DNA of 64,000 nt from a virus (lineage: Duplodnaviria > Caudoviricetes), in IMG/VR virus record IMGVR_UViG_3300022173_000041, positions 1-64,000 of that record; one strand, given 5' to 3'. The notes beneath the pieces were generated by a model, which made no database searches, was not told the origin of the DNA, and saw only the letters and a program-made list of their open reading frames with translations. The position numbers were made by a program, and so were the translations under genes. Below are positions 29,854 through 58,223 of this stretch, in pieces. Position 1 is the stretch's first letter. Each line of letters begins with the position of its first letter.

Positions 29854-30914
29854 CCCCTTGTTCCAAATCCAATTGTTCTGAGTTGTATATTCTTGCCCTG
29901 ATTGAACAGCTCGGCAACGGTGTATTCGCGCTTCTCAATAGGGATCGGCAGCTTCGCTACCTTGGCAGCCGCTTGTGCCTCGGTCAGGTTCAATGGTCTG
30001 GTGTGCATGACGCCAAAGCACCTACCCGGTCGGATCAACGCATGATCCACGCGACCAAAGTCAGTGATATTGGTTGTGAACACCATCTTCTTGTTCGGTA
30101 GTTTAATCAGGCCGTCAGACACGTTCAAGAAGCGAGACATCAGCTTGTTCCCGTCCTTCTCTCGGTCAGACAAGATGGTGTCAGCGTCTTCGATGATCAT
30201 GATATCGCTATCGTCATCGAACAAGAAGTCCTGAAAGATGCTGTCCTTCTGCATCAGGCTCTCGTCATAGATCACATGCGCGGTCAGCTTATGGTCGCTG
30301 ATCAGATGCCGCAGCAACGTGGTCTTCCCAGTGCCGGGGGGGCCAGCAAGCATCAGCACAGCCTCGTCTGAGGCCATGAAGTCTGCCAGATACTTCCTTG
30401 GGTCCCCAAGGTCGGGGTAATACTCAGGATGGATATCTGTACGAAGCGGCGGCAGGTAGACATCCTTGCTGTCCAGCCCGTGCTTGCCAACGAACCACCA
30501 CTTCACAGAGCCAATCTTCTGGGCTTCGAAGTCCGCGCTGATCGCCTTCTTGAGGAACTCAGCAACGTCAGGCCGGGAGACAATATCGATCTTGATTTCC
30601 CAGACTTCCTTATGCTCCTCGGCATTTAGGAACATAATCACAGGGGCGCCAGTGATCTCACCACCGGTAAAGACCATCTCATATAGGTCAACGCGATGGC
30701 TAACGATGGATACGGCGCGCGGAGACCCAGCCAAGTGGGATTTAGTCCTAGAGATAATATCAGCGATGGACATGGTTTTAGCGATAACGACTTCAATCTT
30801 AGCGTTGAAGAGATCGCCCGGGGTTTCAGCAATGAACTGTGTAGTAAGCTGATGGTTAAGACTGGTATCGACCGCAGACATATGCTGCATGTCGAAGAAA
30901 TTCTTGCCTGACAT
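29850..30914 (-). CDS. AAA+ ATPase (classical clade, BCS1-like core)
   Basis: Walker A GPPGTGKT, Walker B IIEDAD, FLNVSDG, TTN, ALIRPGRC; start placed after the genome-typical RBS AAGAGGGAAA. Confidence 0.85.
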   Translation of the reverse strand: MSGKNFFDMQHMSAVDTSLNHQLTTQFIAETPGDLFNAKIEVVIAKTMSIADIISRTKSHLAGSPRAVSIVSHRVDLYEMVFTGGEITGAPVIMFLNAEEHKEVWEIKIDIVSRPDVAEFLKKAISADFEAQKIGSVKWWFVGKHGLDSKDVYLPPLRTDIHPEYYPDLGDPRKYLADFMASDEAVLMLAGPPGTGKTTLLRHLISDHKLTAHVIYDESLMQKDSIFQDFLFDDDSDIMIIEDADTILSDREKDGNKLMSRFLNVSDGLIKLPNKKMVFTTNITDFGRVDHALIRPGRCFGVMHTRPLNLTEAQAAAKVAKLPIPIEKREYTVAELFNQGKNIQLRTIGFGTRG

Positions 30915-31012
30915 TTTCCCTCTTACGTATTTTAGAGAATGCCAACGATCCCTGTAACGCCCCTTAGGACGTATCGTGGCTGGATCAATATTGTACTCTT
31001 CCCCAAGAAGCT

Positions 31013-31369
31013 CTATTGCCTCTTCTTGACTTCCCCGTTCATCATCTTCTTCCATCCTGAAGCCTTTGATCCCGGGAACGGTTTCTTTGCTTTAGCGATA
31101 CCGTATGTCTTTTTTAAGACCCGATCAGCTTTCTGCATTCGAGGGTTATCTTCGGTGAAGGTCTTCTTGTTGTGGCAAATCTTTATACAAAGCACCTTGC
31201 AGTTCTCAAGCGTGTTATCCCCGCCAAGACCGTCAGGTGTGTCGTGATCGTAATGGATGTTCCCAGCGGTAAGCTCTATCCCGCAACCTTCACAGTGCGG
31301 GATACCCTTCTCGTTGCAGCAGCGCTTGAAGGCTAAGAACTTAACCCTTTTGGGGAATTCTTTCCGCAT
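31013..31369 (-). CDS. HNH endonuclease
   Basis: CEGCG...YDHD...GGDNTLENCKVLCIKICHNKKT. Confidence 0.85.
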   Translation of the reverse strand: MRKEFPKRVKFLAFKRCCNEKGIPHCEGCGIELTAGNIHYDHDTPDGLGGDNTLENCKVLCIKICHNKKTFTEDNPRMQKADRVLKKTYGIAKAKKPFPGSKASGWKKMMNGEVKKRQ

Positions 31370-37442: not shown

Positions 37443-37985
37443 ATGTCAGACGTGGAAGTTGGCTTAGTTCCGAAGGTTAAGAGGATCGGTAACTACAAGA
37501 GAATTCAACCAGACAGTCCGTGGGATGAAGGAAGCATGGAGCTTCTTACTAGATGGTGGGAGCTTGGTAGGACCGCTAAGGAGATAACCGACAAGCTAGT
37601 AGAGTTGGGGTATTCTATTACCCGTAACGCCGTTATTGGTAAGGCGAATAGGATGAACATCAAGCAGCCGCCTCGGGACTTTTCCCCGAAGGACAAAAAG
37701 AACAAACCCCGGAAGCGGATCATTGTCCCCGCCACGGACCCGCGCGCCAAGATTTGGGGCAGGAAGAAGACTGTTCTCCCGACGTTCATTGAGACCAAGA
37801 AGCTTGATCCCAATAACCCGGGCATTCCGATCACGGAGCTGACTGACGGGAAGTGCAAGGCCATCGTTCGGGACGGCACGTTCAATTCGCTTGCTACATA
37901 TTGTGGTGAGCCGGTTGACCGACGCTCGTTCTGTGCTGGCCATGCTGAGATTTACTACCAGCCGCCAATGCTACGGCGCCGGTAA
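37443..37985 (+). CDS. gcrA: GcrA cell-cycle regulator homolog
   Basis: WDEGSMELLTRWWELG...ITRNAVIGKANRM; ITELTDGKCK...YCG...FCAGHAEIYYQP. Confidence 0.85.
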   Translation: MSDVEVGLVPKVKRIGNYKRIQPDSPWDEGSMELLTRWWELGRTAKEITDKLVELGYSITRNAVIGKANRMNIKQPPRDFSPKDKKNKPRKRIIVPATDPRAKIWGRKKTVLPTFIETKKLDPNNPGIPITELTDGKCKAIVRDGTFNSLATYCGEPVDRRSFCAGHAEIYYQPPMLRRR

Positions 37986-38638: not shown

Positions 38639-39043
38639 ATGGCACCAAGAAGTTCCATTACCCTAGACCTACCCTTACCACCAAGCGTGAACCGTTTGTG
38701 GAAAATCGGCAAGAACAGAGCGACCGGCAAAAGCCAGATGTATCGCTCTCCAGAGTACGTGGAGTGGGTTCTGGAGGCCGGGCTGGAGATTATGGCCCAG
38801 AAGCCAAAACTCACCACGAAGGCTCTCAGCGGCTCCTACAGCATGATTATCAAGATGGCGCCCAGAAGTAGCTTGGCAGACGCTGATAACTTCCTGAAGG
38901 CCATCTCTGATCTGTTGCAAAAGCACAACATCATCGAAAACGACAAGCTTTGCAGAAAGCTTCTTGTGGTTTGGGACGAGAAGCTACCGGTAGCGTGCCG
39001 GGTAACGGTGAGGTCTACATCTAGCAGCTTGACGATTGCATGA
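38639..39043 (+). CDS. rusA: RusA-like Holliday junction resolvase
   Basis: LPLPPSVNRLW...DADNFLKAISDLL...IENDK. Confidence 0.85.
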   Translation: MAPRSSITLDLPLPPSVNRLWKIGKNRATGKSQMYRSPEYVEWVLEAGLEIMAQKPKLTTKALSGSYSMIIKMAPRSSLADADNFLKAISDLLQKHNIIENDKLCRKLLVVWDEKLPVACRVTVRSTSSSLTIA

Positions 39044-39189
39044 CAGCCATGCAGAAATGAAGAGGCCCCAGCGCGAGAGGGAACACACGCTGGGGCCAGA
39101 AACACGTCGCTAACTCTTGGAAGGCAGCGCCATGCTTGATTTCCAATATACATACGGTCTTTTCGTTCCGCAAGCCATGCGTGAATTGC

Positions 39190-39957
39190 ATGCTTGATCC
39201 CTCATCCATTGATGCTCTCGTCGCCGCTGGTGTCACCACTGAGCAGCTCGCCGCTGTGATCAAAGCGGAGATGGCGGCTGACCATGAAAAGCTGCTGGAA
39301 CGGAGAGTGTATGAGAGAAATCGTAAGCGAATTCAACGATCACGTCCCCGGGACATCGCGGGACAACCGGGGACAACCCTCCCCCCTTGTCCCCCCCTTG
39401 ATAAAGAAAAGGTCCCCACACCCCTAAAAGAAATTAATCCCCCCCTTAATCCCCCCACCCCTATAAATTTAACTATCACCGAATTTTCGGAATTCTGGGA
39501 AGCCTACCCGCTCAAAACCGGCAAGAAAGCTGCTTGGAAAGCCTTCGACAAGGCTAGAAAGTTCGCAAAGACACCCCAGATGCTGGATGGTTTGCATCGG
39601 TACATCGCCAACAAACCGCCTGACCAAGCCTTCTGCCACGCCTCGACTTGGCTCAACGGGCATCGCTGGGAGGATGAAAATCCGCCACTGGTGCAGACCA
39701 CCAACCACATTTCTGCCAAGCCACTTACACCCCGACAGCAGATACTGCTCAACAACATGGAGATAACCCGTGCCCTCCAGAACGGAACCCTCAAGCCAAG
39801 CGCTTACCACCCTTCAGCAGAGCGCGACCTTGGAGGCCAAGAGGAAATCCTGCGCCCACTGGGCCTCCCAGCTCCAAAAGATGTTTCCCCAGACGGAAAG
39901 TCCGATTACCCCAGAATTCATGCTGGCAATGGCAGCGACCATGGAGAGCTATTCTGA
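39190..39957 (+). CDS. Replication initiator (lambda O-like)
   Basis: FSEFWEAYPLKTGKKAAWKAF...HASTWLNGHRWEDE; internal iterons. Confidence 0.75.
   Translation: MLDPSSIDALVAAGVTTEQLAAVIKAEMAADHEKLLERRVYERNRKRIQRSRPRDIAGQPGTTLPPCPPLDKEKVPTPLKEINPPLNPPTPINLTITEFSEFWEAYPLKTGKKAAWKAFDKARKFAKTPQMLDGLHRYIANKPPDQAFCHASTWLNGHRWEDENPPLVQTTNHISAKPLTPRQQILLNNMEITRALQNGTLKPSAYHPSAERDLGGQEEILRPLGLPAPKDVSPDGKSDYPRIHAGNGSDHGELF
39344..39480. repeat. Putative replication origin: GGGACA iterons plus A/T- and C-tract region
   Basis: GGGACA at 39350, 39360 and 39370; inverted GTCCCC at 39344, 39389 and 39412; followed by A/T runs. Confidence 0.6.
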
Positions 39958-40384
39958 GAAGGTCTTGGCAGAGGTTTGCGGCTACCACGGCATCGTAACC
40001 AAGCAGAAGTTCCTCCCGACAGTCTCTGAGCTGAAAGCCGCCTTGGACGAAGCAGCTAGACCGGAAGTCGAAGAGGCTGCCAGACTAAAGGTCCGGGTTG
40101 AGGCAGCTCAAATCAGAGCAGAGGTTAACCGGATTGCAACTGAGAGGGAAACCAGACCGACTTACGAAGAGCTGATTGCCACTTTGCCGCCGTCCCTGCG
40201 ATTGAATAAAAACAATCACGTAGTTCCTATGACGCGGGATGAATTCTTCACAAAATTCCCGCATGTGACATCAGAACAATTAGACGCTGTACCTGACGCA
40301 AAGGACTTTGACTGGAAGACATACCGATCAACATTGCCGACATTGCCAGCGCCAGAAGAAAAAAATCCATTCGAGGACTTGTAA
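39770..40384 (+). CDS. Replication accessory protein (helicase loader-like position)
   Basis: KFLPTVSELK motif; follows the initiator gene. Confidence 0.55.
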   Translation: MPSRTEPSSQALTTLQQSATLEAKRKSCAHWASQLQKMFPQTESPITPEFMLAMAATMESYSEKVLAEVCGYHGIVTKQKFLPTVSELKAALDEAARPEVEEAARLKVRVEAAQIRAEVNRIATERETRPTYEELIATLPPSLRLNKNNHVVPMTRDEFFTKFPHVTSEQLDAVPDAKDFDWKTYRSTLPTLPAPEEKNPFEDL

Positions 40385-40427
40385 CATTCCACCCCAGACA
40401 CAATCTGTGTCTGACTGGAAATGTTAC
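40381..40427. promoter_or_regulatory. Nested palindrome containing an operator-like site
   Basis: GTAACATTCC..CAGACACAATCTGTGTCTG..GGAAATGTTAC. Confidence 0.55.
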
Positions 40428-40439
40428 AAAAGAGGGAAA

Positions 40440-42260
40440 ATGACAACCGCAAAGAATACAATTGTCAGCATTGAGCTGGAAACTTCTCTTCACAATGAGA
40501 AGCTCTTCACCAAAGATGGTGTAAACAAGCTTCTCGTTGAGAAGGATATCCCGGGATCGTTCGAATACTTTCGTCATGGTGGCGTCGAGGGTATCGACAT
40601 CTCTCGCGGCGATGCTCACTTTCGGAATGCACTTTCGAGGGTAATGCAAGAATGTATTGGCCACGCCAAGAATTCTGCACTGGGTCATCGCTACCCTCTG
40701 GACCTTCTTGCCAGAAACAAGAACCGCTGGGTTTCTTCATTGGCTCAGTATGGTTATGGCTACATCGAAGGTGGCTATGATCATGATGGTGATCCGGTCG
40801 ATGAGAACAAGGCTCCTCAGATTGAAGTCATCCTGAAGCTTCTGGAAACTCGCCTAAAGGAAATCGAAAGCGCGGTCGCAAGACAGGTTGCCAACGGGCA
40901 AATCTCTTTTGACGATCTTCCGTTCTTCTATTCTCGCGGCAAGGAAGTGTATATCTCTGACGATGATGGAGAAGTCATCGCCGGTACGGTAGACGCTGCA
41001 AGCATCCAGAAGACTTGGTTCGGCTCTCAGTATCTGGCTGTTTCTCTGAATATCATCCATGGCGTCAATGGAGCGTTGGCGCCGGGCAAGTATCAGGCAA
41101 CACTGCCTGAATACAACGGAACCATCAGCCTCAATGAACTTGCTATCAAGCCTATGTCAGATGAGCTTCGCTTGAGGCTTATTGAGCGTGGCAAGTTGGC
41201 AAAGCGTTGTGCCATTGGCCCGACTTATCTGTCTTACTCTGGACATCTCTCTCGCTCTACGTGGTGGAGTAATGAGACATTCAGGGCAGACGGTCGCGTC
41301 ATGGTCGATGTCGGCTCATTCAAGCGAGTGGACAACGATCAGTTCTCCAAGGAACAGCGCGCGACTGGTATCGCTGGAATGCGAGACAGTGACGGGAATG
41401 TTGGAGCTTCTCTCAACTTCAATCCTTCCGATGCTGATCTGTGGAGGTGCTATCCGTATGTTTACGGGTTTAGCTTCCGCGCCAAGCGCTGGGGCCGGTT
41501 GGCTCTAAGTGGCTTGACAGATATCGCATGGCGATCCGACAGCTTCGACAAACTGGTTCTGCCTGAAGACGAGAAGGCCATGGTCAGGGCTCTGGTCGAG
41601 CATAACGATGGCTCGTTCGAAGACTTGATCGATGGTAAGGGTGGCGGCTGCATCTTCTTGCTGCACGGTCCTCCCGGTCAGGGCAAGACGCTTACTGCTG
41701 AGACAATTGCAGAGCTTCTCAAGAAGCCCCTGTATGCGATCTCGGTGGGTGAGCTTGGGGTTACGCCAGACCAACTGGAAGAGCGCCTGAGAGCGATCTT
41801 GGACGTGGCTACAGTCTGGGACGCTGTGATCCTGCTGGATGAGGCAGACATCTATCTGGAAGCCAGAGACGAGAAAGACATCACGCGAAATGCCATGGTT
41901 GGCGTATTCCTGCGGTTGCTTGAATACCATCACGGCGTTCTGTTCCTGACCACGAACCGGGTGAAGAACATCGATACGGCATTCTATTCCCGTATCTCGG
42001 TTGCGCTTCACTTCGCTCATGGTGACAACAGCAAGCGTGAGAAAATCTGGAACAACCTTCTGGATAGTGCTGGTATTCAGGGGATCAACGCGAAAGAGCT
42101 TTCGTTGATCGACATCAACGGGCGCCAGATCAAGAACGCTATCCGATTGAGCCAGACACTGGCTAAGTCTGAAAGCAAAAAGGTTGACATCAAGACCTTG
42201 GAAAAGGTAATAGAATTGATGACGGCTTTCGACAGAGAGCGGTCACAGGGCAGCGTATAA
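40440..42260 (+). CDS. Large AAA+ ATPase resembling the fungal-expanded GKGxG..LLHGPPG family
   Basis: GKGGGCIFLLHGPPGQGKTLTAE; LLDEADIYLE; FLRLLEY..GVLFLTTNR..ID.AFYSRI. Confidence 0.85.
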   Translation: MTTAKNTIVSIELETSLHNEKLFTKDGVNKLLVEKDIPGSFEYFRHGGVEGIDISRGDAHFRNALSRVMQECIGHAKNSALGHRYPLDLLARNKNRWVSSLAQYGYGYIEGGYDHDGDPVDENKAPQIEVILKLLETRLKEIESAVARQVANGQISFDDLPFFYSRGKEVYISDDDGEVIAGTVDAASIQKTWFGSQYLAVSLNIIHGVNGALAPGKYQATLPEYNGTISLNELAIKPMSDELRLRLIERGKLAKRCAIGPTYLSYSGHLSRSTWWSNETFRADGRVMVDVGSFKRVDNDQFSKEQRATGIAGMRDSDGNVGASLNFNPSDADLWRCYPYVYGFSFRAKRWGRLALSGLTDIAWRSDSFDKLVLPEDEKAMVRALVEHNDGSFEDLIDGKGGGCIFLLHGPPGQGKTLTAETIAELLKKPLYAISVGELGVTPDQLEERLRAILDVATVWDAVILLDEADIYLEARDEKDITRNAMVGVFLRLLEYHHGVLFLTTNRVKNIDTAFYSRISVALHFAHGDNSKREKIWNNLLDSAGIQGINAKELSLIDINGRQIKNAIRLSQTLAKSESKKVDIKTLEKVIELMTAFDRERSQGSV

Positions 42261-42287
42261 CTTCTCCGGGTACGCAACCCAAACTTC

Positions 42288-42325
42288 AGAGCCCGACGCT
42301 GTTATGGCGCCGGGCTCTTTCTTTA
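42288..42325. terminator. Probable intrinsic terminator between convergent units
   Basis: AGAGCCCG...CGGGCTCT hairpin followed by TTCTTT. Confidence 0.6.
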
Positions 42326-42586
42326 TGAGTTTATGATCTCTTCAGCTTTGCATATATCTTCTTCTGAGAATTCATCATCGCTCATCCTGTTACTTTCAAA
42401 CCAAGATGGCCTCTCGTAAATTTTATCCCAGCCGGTATTGTCGATATCCAGCCAATGATCTTTCGTTCCTGTGTGATATGCATATAGCTGCTTACAATCA
42501 GGGGATACATACAAGGAGTAGATGTTTCCGTCCATGCATGCTATTCTGTGAGCAATCCAACTCGGGTAGCTTTTTAGAATATTCAT
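42323..42586 (-). CDS. Small protein with C-terminal acidic tag (subtype 2)
   Basis: Ends FSEEDICKAEEIINS. Confidence 0.65.
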   Translation of the reverse strand: MNILKSYPSWIAHRIACMDGNIYSLYVSPDCKQLYAYHTGTKDHWLDIDNTGWDKIYERPSWFESNRMSDDEFSEEDICKAEEIINS

Positions 42587-42876
42587 TTGAACGGGTTCTC
42601 CTCTTCAGCGCTGATCATGCTCATGGCGGCTTCCACTTCCTCCAAAGAGAAATCGCCTCCCGGGTCACGCTTGATCGGCTGGCGATAGACCATGACACTT
42701 CCCATGACTTGCTTACGGATATCTGCCAAGCGAGAAACAATGGTCCTGACGCTCTCAACGTTCTTGGCATTAGGATATGCAGCAAGCTTATTGATAAGCT
42801 CTTCCTCGTAAGCCTTGATGATATTGCTGGCGCGGGTCCGTTCAAAAGAACGGATCATGTCTTTAGTCGTGCCCAT
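42583..42876 (-). CDS. Small protein with C-terminal acidic tag (subtype 2)
   Basis: Ends FSLEEVEAAMSMISAEEENPFK. Confidence 0.65.
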   Translation of the reverse strand: MGTTKDMIRSFERTRASNIIKAYEEELINKLAAYPNAKNVESVRTIVSRLADIRKQVMGSVMVYRQPIKRDPGGDFSLEEVEAAMSMISAEEENPFK

Positions 42877-43177
42877 AGATAATCTCCTCCGCGCTCATCA
42901 TGTCCTCATCAGAGAATTCAGGCTTGGGAAGCCTGCCAACCTTATCCAGATCGACCATTAGATGAGGGTCAAGCCATTCAGGGATGGACTTACTGTGGTC
43001 CCAGTATTTCTTTTTTTTTGCACTGGCTTCTCGCCAGATAAACGCAGCGACCCTCCCATACATGACGTGCTTCCCTTTAATTGGGATAGAGACGATTGTG
43101 TCCCTTTCTGGGAAATAGGCGCATTTGGCACCGTCCAGTTCATCATCAACGATGGTGTCGATCTCATCTCTAGTCAT
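42863..43177 (-). CDS. Small protein with C-terminal acidic tag (subtype 2)
   Basis: Ends FSDEDMMSAEEIIYGHD. Confidence 0.65.
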   Translation of the reverse strand: MTRDEIDTIVDDELDGAKCAYFPERDTIVSIPIKGKHVMYGRVAAFIWREASAKKKKYWDHSKSIPEWLDPHLMVDLDKVGRLPKPEFSDEDMMSAEEIIYGHD

Positions 43178-43209
43178 GGTTTCCCTCTTACGTTCTTTGT
43201 GTTAAATAA

Positions 43210-43222
43210 ACCCAGATTGTGT
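43210..43222. promoter_or_regulatory. Operator-like site
   Basis: Reverse complement ACACAATCTGGGT between divergent genes. Confidence 0.5.
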
Positions 43223-43239
43223 CACTCTCAAGGGGTCAA

Positions 43240-43746
43240 ATGGGCGTCCTTCGCAACATCAACGATGAGCGGTTTTGTCAGTTAGTGGTCTCGGGCATGG
43301 AACCGGGAGAGGCTTACAAGACGGTCGGGTATACTGCCAAGAACCCGGGTTATGCAGCCAGCCGCAAGATGGCCAAGCCCGTGGTTAGGAAGCGCATGGA
43401 GGAGCTTCTGGACGTTGGCGCCAGAAAGGCCATGCTAAGCCGCTCCATGATCCTACAGCGCATTTATGAGGACTGGGAGCTATCCCGAAAGCTGGGCCAG
43501 ATGGCCAGCGCCATCTCTGCTGGCAAGCTTATGGGCATGGAGCTGCATAAGATGTTCATTGAGCGCAAGGAGATTGGCGGGCCGGGAGACTTCGACGCCA
43601 AGAGCCCTGAAGAGCTTCTTGAGTATATCAAGAAGGAACTAGGGGAGTTGGGGATGGACGCGAAGGACGTAACCAAGACACTTGGTATAAATCTGGATGA
43701 TCATCAAGCGCTTACACTAATACCGCCAGAGAAATCCAAGGTCTAA
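43240..43746 (+). CDS. terS: Terminase small subunit-like protein
   Basis: LRNINDERFCQLVVSG...EAYKTVGY...ASRKM...VRKRMEEL; ERKEIGGPGDF. Confidence 0.7.
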   Translation: MGVLRNINDERFCQLVVSGMEPGEAYKTVGYTAKNPGYAASRKMAKPVVRKRMEELLDVGARKAMLSRSMILQRIYEDWELSRKLGQMASAISAGKLMGMELHKMFIERKEIGGPGDFDAKSPEELLEYIKKELGELGMDAKDVTKTLGINLDDHQALTLIPPEKSKV

Positions 43747-44063
43747 CTTTGTATAAATTCAATTGCTTTGGTTATTTCGTCTTCTTCGAAATCAATATTC
43801 CTGAGTTCTCTCAGTCTGGTTGGGTCAATATCACCACTTTCCCAACGTGGAATGAGTTCGCCAAACTCATTGATTGATGAGCTGGTGGAAAACCAAGTCT
43901 GTATCCTTCCTGTTGGATGATCATAATCCTTTGTCACGCAGAGTTTGCCGCGAAGAGTATTATGCCAAGTTTGTTTCTGGTTAATCCAGCTTTGCATATT
44001 CTCCTGACCGGTCAAATTCCAGACACGATCAGGATCAAGCAAGAGTTCATTTTTGTAACCCAT
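43743..44063 (-). CDS. Small protein with C-terminal acidic tag (subtype 2)
   Basis: Ends FEEDEITKAIEFIQS. Confidence 0.65.
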   Translation of the reverse strand: MGYKNELLLDPDRVWNLTGQENMQSWINQKQTWHNTLRGKLCVTKDYDHPTGRIQTWFSTSSSINEFGELIPRWESGDIDPTRLRELRNIDFEEDEITKAIEFIQS

Positions 44064-44457
44064 TTCTCTCCTCCTCTATTTCATCCATGATGATCTGAGC
44101 CAGCTCAATGTCGTCACCATCTAGCTCACCTTCCATGTCGATCATGGTATTGGAACTAAGGTACGGCGCTACATACAAATCCCATTCTTCTTGGGACGTA
44201 ATTCTATACTGCCAGAGAGGAAGCCCAGATATCATTCCGTGTGATATGTGGATATCCCTAACTGAGCCATCAACGAAATGTCTTACCATCTTTGCAAACC
44301 AACCCCTTTTGGTTTGGTAGAAAGATATTCCTACAAGTCCCTGATCATCACCATTGGCGCCCCAATGTTCCTCGCACCGACGAATTAAGTAGTCGGAAGG
44401 CTCAAGGTCCCATATGCGCTCACTATCTGTACCAAACTCCTCTATATTTAACATCAT
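44047..44457 (-). CDS. Small protein with C-terminal acidic tag (subtype 2)
   Basis: Ends LDGDDIELAQIIMDEIEEERNGLQK. Confidence 0.65.
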   Translation of the reverse strand: MMLNIEEFGTDSERIWDLEPSDYLIRRCEEHWGANGDDQGLVGISFYQTKRGWFAKMVRHFVDGSVRDIHISHGMISGLPLWQYRITSQEEWDLYVAPYLSSNTMIDMEGELDGDDIELAQIIMDEIEEERNGLQK

Positions 44458-44475
44458 AAGTTTCTCCCTCGTTGT

Positions 44476-44514
44476 CGCTTATCACTAGCGCTCGAAAGCG
44501 CTAGGACATAAGCG
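44476..44514 (-). repeat. Intergenic hairpin element, copy 1
   Basis: CGCTTAT-GTC-stem(TTCG loop)-TG-ATAAGCG on the minus strand. Confidence 0.65.
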
Positions 44515-44772
44515 TCAAGTCTTTAGCTTAGCCTCAATTCGATCCAGTTCTGCTCTGGCACCAGCAATGCTGTAGTGATTGCTGTACTGGCTGAAACCAC
44601 GCTGGATAATGCTGCATACGAACAGCACTCCAGCGATCCACTGCAACGCAGAGCTATCCAAAAGATAACCAATGTAGCAGGAGGCTATCAGACATCCGAA
44701 AGTGAAAAAGTCGCAGACTATACTTTCTGCGACTGTCTCATGCAGGATCATGATCTTAATTTTCTCACTCAT
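44515..44772 (-). CDS. Small membrane protein
   Basis: RBS GGAGGGAAAA; two hydrophobic segments. Confidence 0.6.
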   Translation of the reverse strand: MSEKIKIMILHETVAESIVCDFFTFGCLIASCYIGYLLDSSALQWIAGVLFVCSIIQRGFSQYSNHYSIAGARAELDRIEAKLKT

Positions 44773-44782
44773 TTTTCCCTCC

Positions 44783-44831
44783 TTGAGCAAAGGCGCTCAA
44801 TGCTAGGGCTCGTAAGCCCTAGTGTTTGAAC
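44783..44831 (-). repeat. Intergenic hairpin element, copy 2
   Basis: GTTCAA-ACA-stem-CA-TTGAGC..GCTCAA. Confidence 0.7.
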
Positions 44832-44914
44832 GTCTGCGACGAATGCGGGGCGGCAAGTTCGCAAGACCGTGAGGATTTATATGCTGTTCTCACCGCCCCT
44901 ACCTCGCGCGAGGA

Positions 44915-46192
44915 TTACTTGTAGGGAACAGTCCTGCCATATGGCGCCTTAGCGCCACTGCCAGCCCAGTCCACCCACACCACCGGAAAGTCAGGCTGTG
45001 GCCCAAAGCTTGAGGTATACATATCGGTCAGGAAGATACAGCCGATAACGTCTTCCATCTTGCCGATTTCTGTCATGGCGGAATTGAAATCGGTTCCACC
45101 ACCACCACCAGCATTCCAGCCAATGATGTCCTCTTCTGACTTCGCTTCCAGAGTGTTCTGGATTTGTGTATCGACCGAAATCAGAGTGACGTGCGATACC
45201 AAGTCCTGATTGAGAAGGCTTGCAGCCTCTTCGCACATTTCTTGGATCATCTTCTGGCTAACTGAGCCAGACACGTCCAGACACATCACAAGCTTGTATA
45301 CGTTATCGTTGCCATAACCGGGCATGTATTCGTCATTGCCCAGTCGGCGTCGATTAGGACGGGTCCACGTTCGCGTTGCCTTAGACTTGGCATCGCGAGA
45401 CATATCGCGGATAAGGTCCTTCCAGTCGATCTTCTCCTTGGGGAAAAGATCACCGATCAGACGCTGGAGATTGCCCGGCAATGTACCGGGAGGAGACTTC
45501 TCCAGAGCGCTTGCGACAGTTCGCTTCCACTGCCGGTCGGCAGCTTCGCGTTCTTCGGGCGTGGTTTCGAACATGGTGCCGGGAGCTTCCCCATCACCTT
45601 CTTCGTCGCCATTGCCCTCGCCTTCACCCTCACCATCCTGATCTTCTTCTTCGTCACCTTCACCATCCTGAGGCTGGCCTTTCCCCTTTCCTTTCTGGGG
45701 TTTGCCTTTGCCTTTCTCGGACTTTCCTTTGCCGCCGTCCTTGCCTTCCTTGTCTTCCTTTTTCTGCTGCTTTTCCTCCTGCTGTTGCAGGATTTCATAG
45801 ACAGCTTCGGCAGAAAGTTCGGCAAGCTTGTTATCGCGCAATGCATCACGTGGCATTGGGAAATAGTCTTCGACCACCTTGTTGACAGGGAAGTCGCAGG
45901 CTTCATTCCACATCTTATTGTCGCGATATCGGCGCCGGGCAGGATGCATCATAGCGCAATGCAGGACGGTATGCAGAAGCACACCTTCCATGTATTTATC
46001 GTTCGCGGCATCGTCCACATATGCGGGATTGAAGAAGATATCGACCCCATCGGACCATACCGTCTTGTGAGATTTACTCTCAACAAGATTTGCGCCAAAC
46101 AGAATGGATGCAAAGAACGGATTGCGCTTTGCTACACGTTCCCGTGCAGTAAGCATTCGTCGCATTGCAGTTGGTTTCGTTATTCCAAACAT
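44915..46192 (-). CDS. DUF2201-like peptidase-fold plus vWA protein
   Basis: PFFASILF...LLHTVLHCAMMH...WNEACDFPVN; acidic linker; MIDAS LDVSGSV; GGGGTDF. Confidence 0.8.
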   Translation of the reverse strand: MFGITKPTAMRRMLTARERVAKRNPFFASILFGANLVESKSHKTVWSDGVDIFFNPAYVDDAANDKYMEGVLLHTVLHCAMMHPARRRYRDNKMWNEACDFPVNKVVEDYFPMPRDALRDNKLAELSAEAVYEILQQQEEKQQKKEDKEGKDGGKGKSEKGKGKPQKGKGKGQPQDGEGDEEEDQDGEGEGEGNGDEEGDGEAPGTMFETTPEEREAADRQWKRTVASALEKSPPGTLPGNLQRLIGDLFPKEKIDWKDLIRDMSRDAKSKATRTWTRPNRRRLGNDEYMPGYGNDNVYKLVMCLDVSGSVSQKMIQEMCEEAASLLNQDLVSHVTLISVDTQIQNTLEAKSEEDIIGWNAGGGGGTDFNSAMTEIGKMEDVIGCIFLTDMYTSSFGPQPDFPVVWVDWAGSGAKAPYGRTVPYK

Positions 46193-46210
46193 GAATTCTC
46201 CCTCTTGTTG

Positions 46211-46272
46211 TGAAGCAGATGTATTGGCGCTTCGTGCTGGGGGCGTGGGAAATCCGCCCCCAGTGTCGAAAC
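46211..46272 (-). repeat. Intergenic hairpin element, copy 3
   Basis: GTTTCG-ACA-stem-CA-CGAAGC..GCTTCA. Confidence 0.7.
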
Positions 46273-46286
46273 GTCAAGAGGTACCG

Positions 46287-47333
46287 TCAGACACCCTTGG
46301 ACGCCTGCCCTTCGATCAGCAAAGCGGCGAGCGCTTCGTTGGTCTTCAGGGACTTGTCGCGACCCATGGCATCGGTAACGCACATGGAGGCAACATCCGG
46401 TGACATACGTCCCAGATACTTTGCGAACGCGGCGGCATTCTTGGCCGTCAGGTTGCGCGCGATGGTACCAGCCATCAGATACTGGAAGTGAGCGTCACCG
46501 GGCATTTTGGCCTTCATCGGGTCAGCCAAGATGTCTGCGATCTTCGGCAGACCAGCCGCAAGCCGGTCCAAGAAAGCCGCAAACTGCCTTGAGAAGCCCT
46601 CACCCAGAATAGCCAGCGCGGCATTCTCCAAGACACCCTTCAGTGCCTTCGGGTCCATACCAGACGCCTCGGTGTCGCGCAGAACCTTGTTGAAGTTCTC
46701 CAGCGAGCGGGGCGTAGGAAAGGACGGATGATTGACATCGACCTTGTGGATCAGTTCAGGACGCAACTGGAGAAACGCAATCAGGCGCTTGTCCCAGCCC
46801 CACAGCTTGGTCTTTTCAGTGAAGCCGATTTCATCGACCTCGACCGTAATGTGGGCCATGCGGTTTTCCAGAGGCTTCAACATCTTGTTGTCGCCGCCTC
46901 CATCCTCACGGGTGTTTGAGCCCAGAATGATCCGGTTTTTCTTCGGAAGCGGATACCCACCGCACGAACGGTCCAGAACCAACTGATAAGACATCTGCTG
47001 GAGCTGTACGTTCGCATGACCGAATTCGTCAAAGAACATGACGTGCATTTCGTCATCGTCCTTCGGAACGAACGCGGGCCGGGTCCAATGGGTAGACATT
47101 TCCTCGCGGTTGATCAGCGGCATACCGGTGCCGTCCACAATATCCTTTGTAGAAAGCCGGATGTCGTGCAACTGAGATTTGGCGCCAAAGTCCGTTCGGA
47201 TTTTGGTCATGATCTCAGAGTTGATCACCGCTGACTTGCCGACGCCGGTCGGTCCCTTGATCATGACCGGAATATCCGCATGGATCAGGGGATAGACAAC
47301 GTTAGCAAGTTGGGTAATTTTGCACTTCAACAT
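46287..47333 (-). CDS. MoxR-like AAA+ ATPase
   Basis: GPTGVGKS; FFDEF; LGSNTRED; PLENRM; PTPRS. Confidence 0.85.
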   Translation of the reverse strand: MLKCKITQLANVVYPLIHADIPVMIKGPTGVGKSAVINSEIMTKIRTDFGAKSQLHDIRLSTKDIVDGTGMPLINREEMSTHWTRPAFVPKDDDEMHVMFFDEFGHANVQLQQMSYQLVLDRSCGGYPLPKKNRIILGSNTREDGGGDNKMLKPLENRMAHITVEVDEIGFTEKTKLWGWDKRLIAFLQLRPELIHKVDVNHPSFPTPRSLENFNKVLRDTEASGMDPKALKGVLENAALAILGEGFSRQFAAFLDRLAAGLPKIADILADPMKAKMPGDAHFQYLMAGTIARNLTAKNAAAFAKYLGRMSPDVASMCVTDAMGRDKSLKTNEALAALLIEGQASKGV

Positions 47334-47403
47334 AAATAGGTCTCCCTCTTAGAGCAGGATTGCTCAATCATGGACAGAAGTTACTCTGCCCATGGGTCAA
47401 CAA

Positions 47404-47499
47404 TCAGTGGCCTTCATCTGGTAGTTTGGCTAGACGCGATATAGAAGCGATTAAACATACCGCTACCCATAAAGCGTATAGGATAAAGAATATTTCCAA
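47404..47499 (-). CDS. 31-aa membrane micropeptide (not in ORF track)
   Basis: RBS AAGAGAGGGAAA then TTG; MEIFFILYALWVAVCLIASISRLAKLPDEGH. Confidence 0.5.
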   Translation of the reverse strand: MEIFFILYALWVAVCLIASISRLAKLPDEGH

Positions 47500-47573
47500 T
47501 TTCCCTCTCTTACTCGCGCCTTTGTAGAAAGCACGATTATGGGGCGTTTTTTAGGCGCCCCATAGGCTTGCTC

Positions 47574-48497
47574 TCAGAAGTCGGCGTATTCGCCTGCATC
47601 TGCAACCATATCAGCCACTTGCAAGTCCAAGTGATCTAGCTCAATTGTCTTTGCAAGTATTTTCTTGCCCATTCTGATATAGTCCTTGCGGTCAATCTCA
47701 GAATTTCGCAATTGATCGGCGGTTATCCATGACAGTCTGGCAATTTGGTTAGCCATCTCATTGATCTCTTTATTGTTGGTCACGTTCATGGCAAAGAGTA
47801 TCGTGGATATCTCACTTAGATTGATGAGAAGACTGTCACGAATGATTTTGCCGTCTGCCTTGGTTTTGAAAGCTTCAAGGCGTTCGACAAAGTTTTCGAC
47901 CATGCCTCTGGCACGTTGGACCGCATCATGAGCGGCGCCTTTTAGGCGCGTTTCAATCTCCAGCCTCATTGTGTCAGTGGCTCTTTTGACCGCATCTTCT
48001 GCAATGTTTGCTACGAAGTTGGAAGTTTGCGGAATAGGCCAATAGGTCAACTTGTAGGAAAACATCTCGCGAGCCCTCTTGATTGAGGGATATTCCTGAC
48101 GATCAAACAAATCGCCAAGTTCTCGCTCACTGTCTGCGACAAGCCCGGGATAGACCTGTAGATATTCTTCCCATGCTGCACGCAATTCCGCTTCAGCATC
48201 GATCATTTTCGTGCGGAACATTTCTTCCAAGTCAGTTGGCAGCAATCGTGACTTATCGTCACCCCATGGCATGGTGTACTTATACAGTACCTCACGAACA
48301 CGCTGGGACGCGGCCACAACCGCTTTGACCTTTGGCTGTTTACGGTCAATCAAGAACTTGCTGGCTTTGGCGCGATTGGTATTAAGCTTGAACTTTCTTT
48401 CCACATATCCTGTGGCTGTCTTATCGCGCCTTTCACCTAGCAAGCCGCCGTTAACAATGGTTACAGATACAAGCATTGCGGATTTGGCTAGGTCCAT
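47574..48497 (-). CDS. DUF3150-like protein
   Basis: AMLVSVTI...KFLID...YKYTMPWGDDKSRLLP...LGDLFDRQEYPS; linked to MoxR/vWA. Confidence 0.7.
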   Translation of the reverse strand: MDLAKSAMLVSVTIVNGGLLGERRDKTATGYVERKFKLNTNRAKASKFLIDRKQPKVKAVVAASQRVREVLYKYTMPWGDDKSRLLPTDLEEMFRTKMIDAEAELRAAWEEYLQVYPGLVADSERELGDLFDRQEYPSIKRAREMFSYKLTYWPIPQTSNFVANIAEDAVKRATDTMRLEIETRLKGAAHDAVQRARGMVENFVERLEAFKTKADGKIIRDSLLINLSEISTILFAMNVTNNKEINEMANQIARLSWITADQLRNSEIDRKDYIRMGKKILAKTIELDHLDLQVADMVADAGEYADF

Positions 48498-53469: not shown

Positions 53470-53709
53470 ATGGATTACGAGAAGGAAGTGGAGCTTATAG
53501 CTCAGCTACGAAGGGATATGCCTCGTAATGGGGTGGTGATGTCGTTGTGTGATTTTGCGGAAAAATGTTTGGGGTCGAAACCCAAGATGTCTGAGGTTGA
53601 GCGGCGCCAGAAGAATGCTGAGCGGGTGAAGCGGTGGCGACGGAGTAAGGGTCTTGTCGGGGGAGAGGTTATTGAGATTTCTACAAATCCGTTTGAGGGG
53701 GACACGTAA
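53470..53709 (+). CDS. Hypothetical protein with basic helix
   Basis: RBS AGAGG; ERRQKNAERVKRWRR. Confidence 0.6.
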   Translation: MDYEKEVELIAQLRRDMPRNGVVMSLCDFAEKCLGSKPKMSEVERRQKNAERVKRWRRSKGLVGGEVIEISTNPFEGDT

Positions 53710-53975
53710 TGTCTTTGGCTTCACCGCCTGAGATTTGGGGTCAGGTTCATGGGCGGTTTCAGGAGATTTATGCTGCTGACAATGTTGCTGGGAACCGTAT
53801 TGCGGAATTGTTTAGGGCTGCTGTGCTGGCTGACAAGAAGAACGAGCGTTACCATCATGAGATTATGTTGGAGGCGATAGAGGCTGTGTGCCCGATCCGG
53901 GATGGGTTGGCTGATGCAGCTGACGAGTACGAGGAGTATTTGCGGGATGCAGAGGTAATGGAGGGGTTGGACTGA
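53709..53975 (+). CDS. Tagged paralog family member
   Basis: Ends DEYEEYLRDAEVMEGLD. Confidence 0.7.
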   Translation: MSLASPPEIWGQVHGRFQEIYAADNVAGNRIAELFRAAVLADKKNERYHHEIMLEAIEAVCPIRDGLADAADEYEEYLRDAEVMEGLD

Positions 53976-54241
53976 TGCCAGTGTTATCACCACCGGGGGA
54001 CTGGAGGAGGGCATACAACCGTTTTATGGAGCTGCCTGATGATGTCCGTGAAGAGGTCTCGGCTTGTTATCGCGAGTTAACGGATACTCCAGCGAACCTT
54101 CAGAGGATGAACCATGAGCTGATGCTGGAGGCTCTGAGCCTTGTTATTATTCCGCCCGAAAATATCAGTGGGCTGGATGCTGCGGCGATTGAGTACGATG
54201 CAGCGATGCTGGAGCTTGAGGTAATGGAGGGGTTGGGCTGA
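53975..54241 (+). CDS. Tagged paralog family member
   Basis: Ends IEYDAAMLELEVMEGLG. Confidence 0.7.
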   Translation: MPVLSPPGDWRRAYNRFMELPDDVREEVSACYRELTDTPANLQRMNHELMLEALSLVIIPPENISGLDAAAIEYDAAMLELEVMEGLG

Positions 54242-54525
54242 TGATTAGTGACGATCTAGCCGATATCCGGAAGCGGATACTCAACAGCAACGAATATATA
54301 AAAATTGTTAGGAAGTTGGTTGAGGACGCGGATAAAGCGAACAGCCTTCATGGGGGAATTACCGCGTCTGAGGTTAACGACATTATGGAAAAGGCGCTGA
54401 CCGGGTTTATGGCAGCCGCTTTTAACAGATCGTCTGCGGAGGAGAGGGCTGTGGAATACGACGAGGCGATGCGAGCGCAGGATATTATAGAGGGATTAGG
54501 CAATGCCGAGAACATCAAGTCCTAG
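54241..54525 (+). CDS. Tagged small protein
   Basis: Ends VEYDEAMRAQDIIEGLGNAENIKS. Confidence 0.7.
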   Translation: MISDDLADIRKRILNSNEYIKIVRKLVEDADKANSLHGGITASEVNDIMEKALTGFMAAAFNRSSAEERAVEYDEAMRAQDIIEGLGNAENIKS

Positions 54526-54769
54526 TGACTGGGAGCCGCCGTTTCAGGCAGCGATGGCTATCCGGAGGGATGATTTCAATACGTGGGTTAAGATCAGGGA
54601 CGCCTACGCAGCTAAGTGCCGGTTGGATGTAAACAACGAAAAATACCATCACGAGCTGATGTGGGAGACATTGAACGAATATTCGGCTGGGGTTCCGACC
54701 GGGTTTGAAGTAGCCGCGCTGGAATATGACGAAGCCATGCGCGCTGAGAAGATCATGGATGGGTTGTGA
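54503..54769 (+). CDS. Tagged paralog family member
   Basis: Ends LEYDEAMRAEKIMDGL. Confidence 0.7.
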   Translation: MPRTSSPSDWEPPFQAAMAIRRDDFNTWVKIRDAYAAKCRLDVNNEKYHHELMWETLNEYSAGVPTGFEVAALEYDEAMRAEKIMDGL

Positions 54770-54984
54770 TGACGGAGACATGGAACTGCGATGGATGCGG
54801 TACCCATCGCAAGAGATTGGGGAGCGGGGATTATTGCCGGGATTGCGTGAAGAGGTTCAGCGCTGCCAGACGATACAATCGGCGCCAAGAGCAGTTTGAG
54901 ACTGAGCTTCTTACAAAGCAGATTGATACGAGGGATTACGAGGACGCGATGCGAGCCGAAGAAATCATGGAGGGGCTGAAATGA
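54766..54984 (+). CDS. Zinc-ribbon protein with C-terminal tag
   Basis: CDGC...CRDC; ends RDYEDAMRAEEIMEGLK. Confidence 0.7.
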   Translation: MMTETWNCDGCGTHRKRLGSGDYCRDCVKRFSAARRYNRRQEQFETELLTKQIDTRDYEDAMRAEEIMEGLK

Positions 54985-55103
54985 AATTAGATGTGGTTGG
55001 CGTCTTGATGGTCTTAACCGCGCTACTCGCCAGCGCCTACATAATTACCTTGGCAGATAGATCGTATTCAGAACGACGCATGGAGATAAGTAAATGCCGT
55101 TAG
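54981..55103 (+). CDS. 40-aa membrane micropeptide (not in ORF track)
   Basis: ATGA overlap; MKLDVVGVLMVLTALLASAYIITLADRS... Confidence 0.5.
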   Translation: MKLDVVGVLMVLTALLASAYIITLADRSYSERRMEISKCR

Positions 55104-55159
55104 TGGCGTCGGCGGGAACAAAGCCAAATAATAAACACAATTAAGGGGGAGTGTGCGTG

Positions 55160-55444
55160 ATGAATGGAATGTCTGATCGCTGGTTTACCCTGTGCAAACA
55201 GTACAAGAACTATTCGGTCGAAATCAGGAACCGAATAGACGATATCTATGAACCGGAACGCGAGGAAATTCACAAACTCTATGAGACCGGCGGAAGAAGC
55301 GCGAGGTTCGATCTGTACTCAAATGCTTTGGAGAAAGCCATCTGGTCAGTAACCGGTACTGGACCTGAAGCCGTATTCGGTACTTCTCATGAAGAATACG
55401 AAGAAGCAATGCGAGCTGAAGAACTCATGGAGGGCTTGAAGTGA
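55160..55444 (+). CDS. Tagged paralog family member
   Basis: Ends EEYEEAMRAEELMEGLK. Confidence 0.7.
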   Translation: MNGMSDRWFTLCKQYKNYSVEIRNRIDDIYEPEREEIHKLYETGGRSARFDLYSNALEKAIWSVTGTGPEAVFGTSHEEYEEAMRAEELMEGLK

Positions 55445-55704
55445 CAGTGAGAGAGCCAAGCGAGAAGTGGGGGCGGGCAGTGACCCGGTACAGCGCCCTA
55501 CCTACAATTCTCCAGCACAAAATTGCAGATGCATACAAGCCATACCATGACGGCAATGATGATCATTTCTATGACAAGTGCGCCGACAATCTGGAAGCCG
55601 CAATCAATGCTCACTTTGGCGAGCTGATAGTATCTTTAACGCAAGAAGCCGACGCATACGATGAAGCTATGCGAGCTGACACCATCATGGAAGAACTAGG
55701 GTGA
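55441..55704 (+). CDS. Tagged paralog family member
   Basis: Ends DAYDEAMRADTIMEELG. Confidence 0.7.
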   Translation: MTVREPSEKWGRAVTRYSALPTILQHKIADAYKPYHDGNDDHFYDKCADNLEAAINAHFGELIVSLTQEADAYDEAMRADTIMEELG

Positions 55705-55708
55705 TACC

Positions 55709-55945
55709 GTGGCTAACGAGGGACTGAGTAGGTGGTATCTGGACGGATACCGCGCCCGCATGAAGAGAACCCCAAGAGAGAACAATCCAAGACATAGATA
55801 CCGTGGAAAACCTAACTCAGTGAAGGCTGTTCGTTGGGATCAGGGCTGGCAAGCCGCTGACGATCATCTCCAGCCAGTTATTAAGTGGGATCAAGAACAG
55901 GATATTATCGATGCCCTCCAAGAAGAAGCGACTTCCTATACTTGA
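55709..55945 (+). CDS. Rmf/CrpP-fold-like protein with degenerate tag
   Basis: WYLDGYRARM...NP...WDQGWQAA; EQDIIDAL. Confidence 0.55.
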   Translation: MANEGLSRWYLDGYRARMKRTPRENNPRHRYRGKPNSVKAVRWDQGWQAADDHLQPVIKWDQEQDIIDALQEEATSYT

Positions 55946-56264
55946 ACCAATTCCGGCGCCGGATGGAAAGACCAAAGCTTTCTTGAAGGGATGGGATGCC
56001 AGAATGGCTAACAAGCCACGTTCTGTCGCGCCTGAATCAACTATTTACAAAAGGGTCAGGGTGGGTGGAATGTTAACTTGGGAATTTAATAATGATACTA
56101 GGGTGAGGTCATCCCGCGTCAGGAAACAATGGATCACTGGATACACCTCTGCATCCCGCGAGATAGGCAAGCAGCACAGAGCAATCGCTCATGCCGCTGA
56201 AACCAAGCGCATGAATGAAGAGAACGATATCTTTGCCGAGCTTGGAGAGGAATTCGCTGCCTGA
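55911..56264 (+). CDS. Rmf/CrpP-fold-like protein with degenerate tag
   Basis: AFLKGWDARM...QWITGYTSA; ENDIFAEL. Confidence 0.5.
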   Translation: MPSKKKRLPILEPIPAPDGKTKAFLKGWDARMANKPRSVAPESTIYKRVRVGGMLTWEFNNDTRVRSSRVRKQWITGYTSASREIGKQHRAIAHAAETKRMNEENDIFAELGEEFAA

Positions 56265-56275
56265 TCCTTGAATAG

Positions 56276-56288
56276 ACACAAATTGTGT
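56276..56288. promoter_or_regulatory. Operator-like site
   Basis: ACACAAATTGTGT upstream of the gene at 56325. Confidence 0.5.
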
Positions 56289-56324
56289 TTACGTAACTTA
56301 ATACGCCAATCAAGAGGGAACACC

Positions 56325-56594
56325 ATGTCGAAAGAAGAAGAGAAGAAGATCATCACGCTCAAGCTGGATCAGGCTGAGCTGGCTGTTCGTATTGTCGAGG
56401 CCATGACGGATACCGCGCGACCGGAGGGACGTACCCCGGAAGAGTGTCTTGAAGACATCTCCGAGGAAGGAAGACAGTCTGCCCTGAATGCTGCCTTCGC
56501 GGCTGCCACTTACTTTGTGGAAGTCATGAAGGGGGAAATCCCCAACGTCACCAGCGAGAAGATCAAAAAGAGCGACGGTCGTTGGTCTAACTGA
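56325..56594 (+). CDS. Hypothetical protein
   Basis: RBS AAGAGGGAA. Confidence 0.65.
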   Translation: MSKEEEKKIITLKLDQAELAVRIVEAMTDTARPEGRTPEECLEDISEEGRQSALNAAFAAATYFVEVMKGEIPNVTSEKIKKSDGRWSN

Positions 56595-56866
56595 TGGGCT
56601 CCAAGGGATCATCTTCCGCTGTGTCCACTAGCAATGCTCAAAGCCTATTCCAGACAGTGGAAGGCTGGCGCGAATACTGCCGTCGTGTGGAGCTGCTACA
56701 CAACATGCCAACTGATGGCCAGAGGCAGGCCATCATCAATGAAATACACCAGCAGGAAAACGGCCATCTTTCTGGCCTTATTAACGCGCAAGAATACCAA
56801 GACATCATGAAAGCCAACGAGCTTTATGAAAAGCTCATTAACGAGGGAAACGAAAATGACGAGTAA
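56594..56866 (+). CDS. Tagged small protein
   Basis: QEYQDIMKANELYEKL near the C-terminus. Confidence 0.65.
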   Translation: MGSKGSSSAVSTSNAQSLFQTVEGWREYCRRVELLHNMPTDGQRQAIINEIHQQENGHLSGLINAQEYQDIMKANELYEKLINEGNENDE

Positions 56867-57637: not shown

Positions 57638-57638
57638 C

Positions 57639-58207: not shown

Positions 58208-58223
58208 TTATAAAATTCAATCA

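Follow-up and report, generated by a model that had tools for sequence, protein, structure and literature searches.

What does a short acidic helix do when it recurs at the C-termini of neighboring small phage proteins whose N-terminal parts differ? The question is raised by five minus-strand genes (block A, 44457-42323) of the window analyzed here, i.e., the whole stretch of 64,000 nucleotides, which is the first 64 kb of the 73,677-bp IMG/VR phage record IMGVR_UViG_3300022173_000041 (genome G000, with direct terminal repeats), an uncultured phage for which metagenomes are the only source. The original prediction, made from the letters of this stretch, took the shared C-terminal motif of these proteins for a docking tag related to a second one found in block B (53.5-61.1 kb, a rightward operon). 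We infer, with a probability of roughly 0.55, that the tag is a portable docking helix which plugs many different effector heads (N-terminal domains) into one conserved receptor. The module is borne by 16 of the ~105 proteins of this phage (about one in seven) and is the only part of the accessory proteins to be conserved between relatives, the rest being completely turned over. The tagged genes of the window, named below by their lower coordinate, are as follows (lengths in amino acids, aa):

42323-42586 (-): 87-aa gene that closes the leftward operon; type A tag at 42329-42373 (E-F-S-E-E-D-I-C-K-A-E-E-I-I-N), followed by one residue and the stop
42583-42876 (-): gene, 97 aa; tag D-F-S-L-E-E-V-E-A-A-M-S-M-I-S at 42610-42654
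42863-43177 (-): gene, 104 aa; tag E-F-S-D-E-D-M-M-S-A-E-E-I-I-Y at 42875-42919
43743-44063 (-): gene, 106 aa, paralog of 44047-44457; tag D-F-E-E-D-E-I-T-K-A-I-E-F-I-Q at 43749-43793
44047-44457 (-): gene, 136 aa; tag E-L-D-G-D-D-I-E-L-A-Q-I-I-M-D at 44083-44127
53709-59604 (+): block B, in which ten genes encode the type B tag A-x-E-Y-[ED]-E-x-[ML]-[RK]-A-[QE]-E-[IL]-M-[ED]-G-L
60595-61113 (+): 172-aa gene closing block B; type A tag at 61045-61089 (D-F-T-E-D-E-I-N-R-A-L-E-I-I-D)

The C-terminal tag and its recurrence

All six C-termini quoted in the original prediction were recovered as written, including the one in the open reading frame (ORF) 60595-61113, which had been listed as ORF 60769. 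Each of the five block A ORFs is the best-coding frame and ends in the motif, with positive codon-usage log-odds for all five (8 to 41) and a value of -14 for the competing 158-aa plus-strand ORF. A regular expression built from the six tags had seven matches when the genome was translated in six frames, and six of the seven were the reported sites, 2-12 residues from the stop; as this expression was fitted to the six sequences and is thus post hoc, leave-one-out position-specific scoring matrices were used. Four of the six tags then ranked first among 101 proteins with 19-30 bits (30.1 bits for 42323), which 0 of 2000 shuffles reached, and the 10.9 bits of 42583 were reached by two of 2000. 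The motif stands out from shuffled sequences in these cases, but the tag of 44047, in which L replaces F, is marginal by itself (6.7 bits, 106/2000 shuffles); its ortholog in the related genome G001 has the canonical E-F-D-E-E-D-I-E-L-A-Q-I-I-M. When all C-terminal 30-mers were compared with one another, 46 pairs scored at least 35, compared with nine for the preceding 30-mers and one for shuffled C-termini, and one large component contained all five block A genes together with 60595 and block B.

Four relatives (G001-G004) were located via their von Willebrand factor A (vWA) and MoxR genes and scanned with a matrix trained on the G000 tags only, at a threshold of at least 12 bits:

G000: 73.7 kb, completeness 100%, reference for MoxR identity, 16 tags
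G001: 74.2 kb, completeness 100%, MoxR 82% identical to G000, 10 tags
G002: 73.4 kb, completeness 98%, MoxR 81-82% identical to G000, 7 tags
G003: 60.9 kb, completeness 82%, MoxR 61% identical to G000, 14 tags
G004: 76.6 kb, completeness 100%, MoxR 62% identical to G000, 16 tags

The four genomes that had no part in the training gave 46 matches, against 0-2 in residue-shuffled ORFs, and 45 of the 46 lay at most 21 residues from the stop (background 31%, P = 3e-22); across all five genomes, the same holds for 61 of 62 tags. Tagged proteins are 54-233 aa long and are encoded in tandem arrays.

The predicted kinship of the block A and block B tags was borne out by several comparisons. The type A consensus (27 copies) reads P-[ED]-F-[STD]-[LE]-[ED]-[ED]-[IM]-E-x-A-[EQ]-x-[IL]-[IM]-[ED]-x-L, and in logos drawn from 27 type A and 35 type B tags (62 altogether) positions 10-17 are common to both types, A-[QE]-E-[IL]-[IM]-[ED]-[GE]-L, in agreement with the common core proposed originally (A10-x-[ED]12-[IL]13-[IM]14-[ED]15-x-L17), while the first halves differ (P-[ED]-F-[STD]-[LE]-[ED]-E-[IM] in type A vs. 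A-x-E-Y-[ED]-E-x-[ML]-[RK] in type B). When the block A matrix was run over the G000 proteome, the block B tags came out as the next-best matches in ungapped register, a MAFFT alignment of 27 tags placed both types on one nearly invariant Ala, and intermediates between the two were found (P0010 and G001 40401-40892). Both types are present in five of five genomes, and the operon downstream of the MoxR-vWA gene pair contains a mixture of the two in G003 and G004. On these sequence comparisons, types A and B are two long-lived subtypes of one module.

At the DNA level, the tag codons within G000 agree in ~66% of first and second positions and in ~25% of third positions, and for identical tag residues the codon is the same in 34 of 81 cases, as expected by chance from codon usage; ortholog pairs also show synonymous differences inside the tag. 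Random third codon positions exclude a DNA repeat or recombination linker. The Glu-rich ending could otherwise be a by-product of translational coupling, i.e., of GAGGAG ribosome-binding sites embedded in the 3' ends of genes that overlap head to tail (by ATGA, 14 nt, and 17 nt). Some block A genes do have this arrangement: the 8-residue tail behind the tag of 42583 contains the GAGGAG site of the downstream gene, which starts at the ATGA overlap, the 11-residue tail of 44047 contains both the ribosome-binding site and the start of the downstream gene, and in 42863 the codons for A-E-E within the tag (GCGGAGGAG) supply GAGGAG 8 nt ahead of the next ATG. We nevertheless give this explanation next to no credence, as 42323, 43743, and 60595 keep the full motif without a coupled downstream gene, the conserved positions F, I/M, A, and I-I are not rich in purines, and third codon positions are random; a Shine-Dalgarno by-product is specifically contradicted by the operon-final genes that retain the tag. 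Random third positions and operon-final genes with an intact motif together mean that selection acts on the peptide, as had been claimed from the differing codons.

Outside these five genomes the tag was rarely encountered. Its profile, searched against 1.84 billion representative proteins, gave ten matches at E ≤ 0.001, of which seven were small proteins matched C-terminally (six from G000/G001 and one from a relative beyond the five) and three were long repeat proteins, one with repeats of tetratricopeptide (TPR) type. Degenerate DNA patterns for the canonical type A and type B tags retrieved only G001 plus chance matches from IMG/VR, a search for family A6 in IMG/VR, metagenome contigs, and GTDB genomes found only G001 and two short contigs, and a megablast of 41000-47500 against phage records gave zero matches. 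By these searches the tag module is lineage-specific, within the limited search power of a 16-residue motif.

Variable heads on a constant helix

The tag-less N-terminal parts of block A show no strong similarity in pairwise comparison (z ≤ 3.5). They had been described as unrelated, which agrees with the remaining head classes, whose tag-less profiles did not match one another (P 0.37-0.59; thin profiles of two sequences each), but not with 43743 and 44047: these have R-[VI]-W-[ND]-L, T-K-R-G, and P-x-W in common, their tag-less profiles match (hhalign P = 1.6e-4), and they belong to one 13-member family with two subfamilies. Since the two are paralogs, the five block A genes represent four N-domain classes at most. 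Neither Pfam nor PHROGs offered a family for the five block A proteins, 60595 or 54241, and the cut-off of these databases was passed by none of ten larger tagged proteins from G001-G003; 42863 was an orphan in a homolog search among 5.8 billion protein clusters, and an ESM Atlas search with 60595 returned no usable match.

G000 and G001 have 60-90% identity in their core proteins, yet most tagged G000 proteins are without a BLAST homolog in G001, which is nonetheless tagged at syntenic places. The counterpart of 42323 in G001 has 36% identity with the tag retained, the homolog of 42583 in G003 has 28% identity with tag and tail alike, and in the ortholog pair of 44047 the N-domain is 23% identical and the tag is the same in 12 of 15 residues. 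A type-A-tagged gene occupies the position of 60595-61113 in five of five genomes, as the last one before a pseudaminic-acid-type operon, and its head can scarcely be aligned (to that of G001 with 28% identity and E = 0.013; no match to the equivalents in G002-G004). In the syntenic slot of 42863, G001 has a 158-aa head with the tag kept. BLAST clustering of the N-domains of 46 tagged proteins gave 37 clusters, which is an overcount, as known orthologs separate after tag removal. Protein-level selection keeps the helix while the heads diverge beyond recognition or get replaced.

Head-tag units are also found in series, in a 181-aa protein of G003 (L020 15191-15736 (+) = G003 38698-39243). It has one tag 88 residues from the end and one that is terminal, and its second half begins with the SH3-like motif I-G-D-K-V; from its sequence it looks like two adjacent head-tag genes fused via stop codon loss. 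SH3-like 'GDRV' heads occur in other relatives as well: several tagged G004 proteins (L030 13408-17971 (+)) and a protein on a 1-kb metagenome contig (L012 671-961 (+)) start with M-K-[IV]-G-D-R-V, the signature of a small SH3-like beta-barrel that was not seen among the block A heads of G000.

AlphaFold2 (AF2) models of 42583 and 44047 both have a mean predicted local distance difference test (pLDDT) score of 69. The former consists of two long helices, a linker at residues 61-73 (pLDDT < 50), and a tag helix at 78-92, and the latter of helices and a 4-stranded sheet, a linker at 100-113 (pLDDT < 50 at 103-107), and a tag helix at 114-133, which is the best-predicted part of the model (pLDDT 77-87). 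A Foldseek search of the 44047 model against the PDB found nothing below E = 0.2. Judged from the models, the tagged small proteins appear to span more than one fold.

Common descent alone could produce a similar picture, if the genes were tandem duplicates of one fast-evolving family in which the C-terminal helix is the most constrained element and has no tag function. Tandem arrays of similar-size genes, the paralogs 43743 and 44047, and small clusters of related heads in block B speak for such a history, and the profiles arguing against homology are thin. The predicted folds of 42583 and 44047 differ, however, and SH3-like heads occur elsewhere; a low-confidence linker lies between domain and helix, tag-less profiles remain unmatched, and different heads are found in one syntenic slot with the tag kept (the 158-aa protein of G001 vs. 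42863). We therefore regard common descent without a tag function as unlikely.

The helix itself has a mean charge of -4.4 per 15 residues, compared with +0.6 in controls. Its hydrophobic positions (F2 or Y4, I/M7-8, A10, I13, I/M14, and L17) lie on one side of the helical wheel with the carboxylates opposite, and the F-[STD]-x-x-[ED]-[IM] start presumably corresponds to a hydrophobic staple and capping box at the beginning of a helix. Such a face could also serve oligomerisation, with the tags bundling mutually into homo- or mixed oligomers that need no distinct receptor. The a/d-like spacing of I7, A10, I14, and L17 is what helix-helix packing typically shows, as is a small residue such as the nearly invariant Ala, and the only tag-profile matches outside the lineage were the repeat proteins mentioned above. 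A charge this negative, however, disfavors self-association in the absence of a basic or metal partner, and the helix spans only about two heptads, which makes oligomerisation an improbable account of the tag.

If the docking reading is correct, block A would encode five small accessory proteins of a host-takeover region, each built from a variable N-terminal domain (no more than four classes in the set of five), a short linker of low model confidence that often has Pro at its end, and a ~16-residue helix with a net charge near -4, 0-21 residues from the C-terminus. Contact with the receptor would be made through the F/Y-I/M-A-I-I/M face, with carboxylates flanking it. Several observations weigh against this reading. 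The thin N-domain profiles leave room for a deep common ancestry of the heads, and with a hydrophobic moment of 0.27 the tags do not surpass ordinary C-termini of G000 (0.28), for which reason exceptional amphipathicity was dropped as a property of the tag. Furthermore, in Erwinia phage S6 (N4-like, with a related ATPase), 42 small proteins around the ATPase scored at most 4 bits; as none is tagged there, the tag was also rejected as a general trait of phages with MoxR-like ATPases.

Operon context and candidate receptors

Docking on one conserved receptor would point to a single hub for fast-evolving host-takeover or counter-defence proteins, and the identity of this receptor would annotate dozens of orphan proteins together, including ones beyond sequence comparison. 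The genes and features that flank or interrupt block A are the following:

40308-42260 (+): 650-aa AAA ATPase whose gene converges on block A; found in just two genomes, G000 and G002, and so outside the conserved system
42288-42318 (unstranded): GC-rich hairpin in the gap where the AAA ATPase gene and 42323-42586 converge
43219-43746 (+): terminase-small-subunit-like helix-turn-helix gene inside block A, on the opposite strand
44915-46192 (-): DUF2201_N + vWA protein, upstream of block A in the same operon
46287-47333 (-): MoxR-class AAA+ ATPase directly upstream of the vWA gene; 61-82% identity across the five genomes

The tagged genes stand behind MoxR-vWA on the same strand in five of five genomes. 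Besides MoxR, vWA, and the terminase-small-subunit-like protein, the products of 47574-48497 and of an AAA gene at 29850-31055 are likewise shared by all five. In the vWA protein, the residues of the MIDAS (metal ion-dependent adhesion site; DVSGS, GGGGT, FLTD) are invariant in all five, and a basic R-D-M-S-R-D-A-K-S..R-x-N-R-R-R segment is invariant as well. The zincin HExxH of the same protein is not kept across the five phages, which have HTVLH, KTVLH, HSVLH, ECVMH, and EVIMH. From its sequence, the DUF2201_N/vWA protein is probably a non-catalytic adaptor. In MoxR-partnered vWA adaptors, the MIDAS binds a carboxylate of the substrate (CbbQO-Rubisco, PMC4660213), and the MIDAS of Mdn1 binds two different substrates (Rsa4/Ytm1) via one shared domain type (PMC8837202). 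On account of the invariant MIDAS, the decayed zincin, the shared operon in 5/5 genomes, and this established carboxylate recognition, we tentatively put forward the vWA adaptor with its MoxR AAA+ partner as the best phage-encoded receptor candidate, with the odds still clearly against it; a host hub protein as receptor is about as likely. The vWA candidate has two points against it. All five genomes are related and syntenic and were mostly found through MoxR or vWA, so that, given the shared synteny and this search route, the adjacency of tag and MoxR-vWA is not independent evidence; moreover, the majority of the tags (block B) lie in a divergent operon, away from MoxR-vWA.

A more far-reaching and rather speculative possibility is that MoxR and the MIDAS-vWA protein form a remodelling machine programmed by 7-16 interchangeable small proteins per genome, which would dock via the acidic helix and each bring a different host target by its variable head; the two tag subtypes would then perhaps correspond to two docking sites. 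If true, this would be a modular, fast-evolving host-takeover arsenal on one motor. As many as 726 phage records match the MoxR-class ATPase, and we found no account in the literature of the role of the MoxR-vWA gene pair in phages, for which the tagged proteins, with this pair as their receptor, would be the first substrates.

As a partner of the tag, the large AAA ATPase at the other end of block A did not hold. G001 and G004, each at 100% completeness, lack its gene, as does G003 at 82%, and these genomes have 10, 16, and 14 tags, respectively, so that three of five tag-bearing genomes are without it and an obligatory role is ruled out. PHROGs groups this ATPase with 'ATP-dependent protease', which, together with the C-terminal position of the tag and the presence of AAA+ ATPases in the phage, is what would favor a degradation or turnover signal, i.e., a degron for a host protease (ClpXP, Lon) or a phage AAA+ protein that allows a timed clearance of early proteins. 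Behind the tag, both the number of residues (0-21) and their sequence vary, the very C-terminus is not conserved, and one tag copy is internal; the variable distance between tag and C-terminus argues against a degron recognized by its end, and the absence of the 650-aa ATPase from three genomes adds to this. We see only a slim chance for such a signal.

In the wider layout of the genome, structural and lysis genes occupy 0.3-29.5 kb on the plus strand and are followed by a replication/recombination module on the minus strand and by two divergent accessory operons with their origin near 52-53.4 kb. The leftward operon runs from small genes through the MoxR-class ATPase and DUF2201_N/vWA to block A, and the rightward one is block B. 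A GcrA-like cell-cycle regulator is encoded at 37443-37985 (+) (Pfam E = 1.6e-15), a small protein made up of DnaA domain IV at 58847-59296 (+) inside block B (E = 5.8e-20), and a RusA-like resolvase gene is also nearby. The GcrA-like and DnaA-domain-IV genes point to an alphaproteobacterial host and to a putative interference with host replication or the cell cycle, and the accessory operons would fit a host-takeover region, whose 'early' timing we infer from gene layout alone.

Within block A, the placement of the terminase-small-subunit-like gene is kept in five of five genomes (49-67% identity), distant from the large terminase (70817-72427 of the genome). In G001, two HNH endonuclease genes, which look like homing endonucleases from their sequences, are inserted within block A on the opposite strand beside tagged genes (L002 10678-11310 (-) and 11828-12370 (-)). 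The hairpin at 42288-42318 has an 11-bp stem including one G-T pair; it was read from the sequence, was missed by a consensus scan, and is a probable two-way terminator.

Comparison with known systems

No described equivalent of the tag was found in the literature, and the known systems resemble it in part. Ligands of MIDAS proteins (CbbQO-Rubisco, Mdn1) are similar in that the phage has an intact-MIDAS vWA gene adjoining a MoxR ATPase in 5/5 genomes; the known ligands present a carboxylate on a folded surface or a ubiquitin-like domain, unlike the phage tag, which is a predicted terminal helix. An ssrA-like degron differs from the tag, which has no conserved residues at the very C-terminus.

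The tails of single-stranded DNA-binding protein (SSB), T7 gp2.5, and gp4 are acidic and disordered, end in an aromatic residue, and offer one tail to many partners. In common with the phage tag, they are acidic and C-terminal and include a key hydrophobic residue, and in the replication of phages and bacteria they act as a handle for protein-protein contacts. The tag differs in that it is predicted to be helical, is present on many proteins, and has its conserved aromatic N-terminally in the motif. The SSB of this phage (32651-32938), with D-D-D-I-P-F at its end, is not tag-like.

Two further systems bring cargo to a destination. Microcompartment encapsulation peptides (PduP, PduD, and EutC type) are short terminal helices that combine a hydrophobic face with acidic residues; a linker of low conservation connects them to enzymes of unrelated folds, and one receptor recognizes them. 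The phage tag is likewise a short terminal helix after a low-confidence linker in the AF2 models of 44047 and 42583; unlike these peptides, it comes without a match to the microcompartment shell family PF00936 in the complete phage genome (control genomes matched), and its profile finds no such proteins outside the phage lineage. The capsid targeting sequence (CTS) of T4 is N-terminal, cleaved by the prohead protease, and not an acidic helix. Here too, one phage puts the same short peptide on several different proteins, which in T4 have a single destination, but the phage tag is C-terminal and its genes lie in accessory operons. By analogy, the helix might be a cargo-loading signal that sends proteins into the procapsid or onto the virion. 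The resemblance of unrelated cargo, linker, and short terminal helix to encapsulation peptides is in line with this, and injecting many accessory proteins together with the DNA would be biologically sensible. Since the tagged genes sit in divergent accessory operons by the GcrA-like and DnaA-domain-IV genes and not in the structural module, zero tags occur on structural-module proteins, and the phage has no microcompartment shell gene, we consider cargo loading very unlikely.

The docking reading also has a parallel in dockerin, a Ca-binding domain that joins different catalytic heads to the cellulosome scaffold via cohesin. Dockerin has ~70 residues and the phage tag ~16, and no scaffold with repeated receptor modules was seen; what the two have in common is that many different heads are combined with one C-terminal module.

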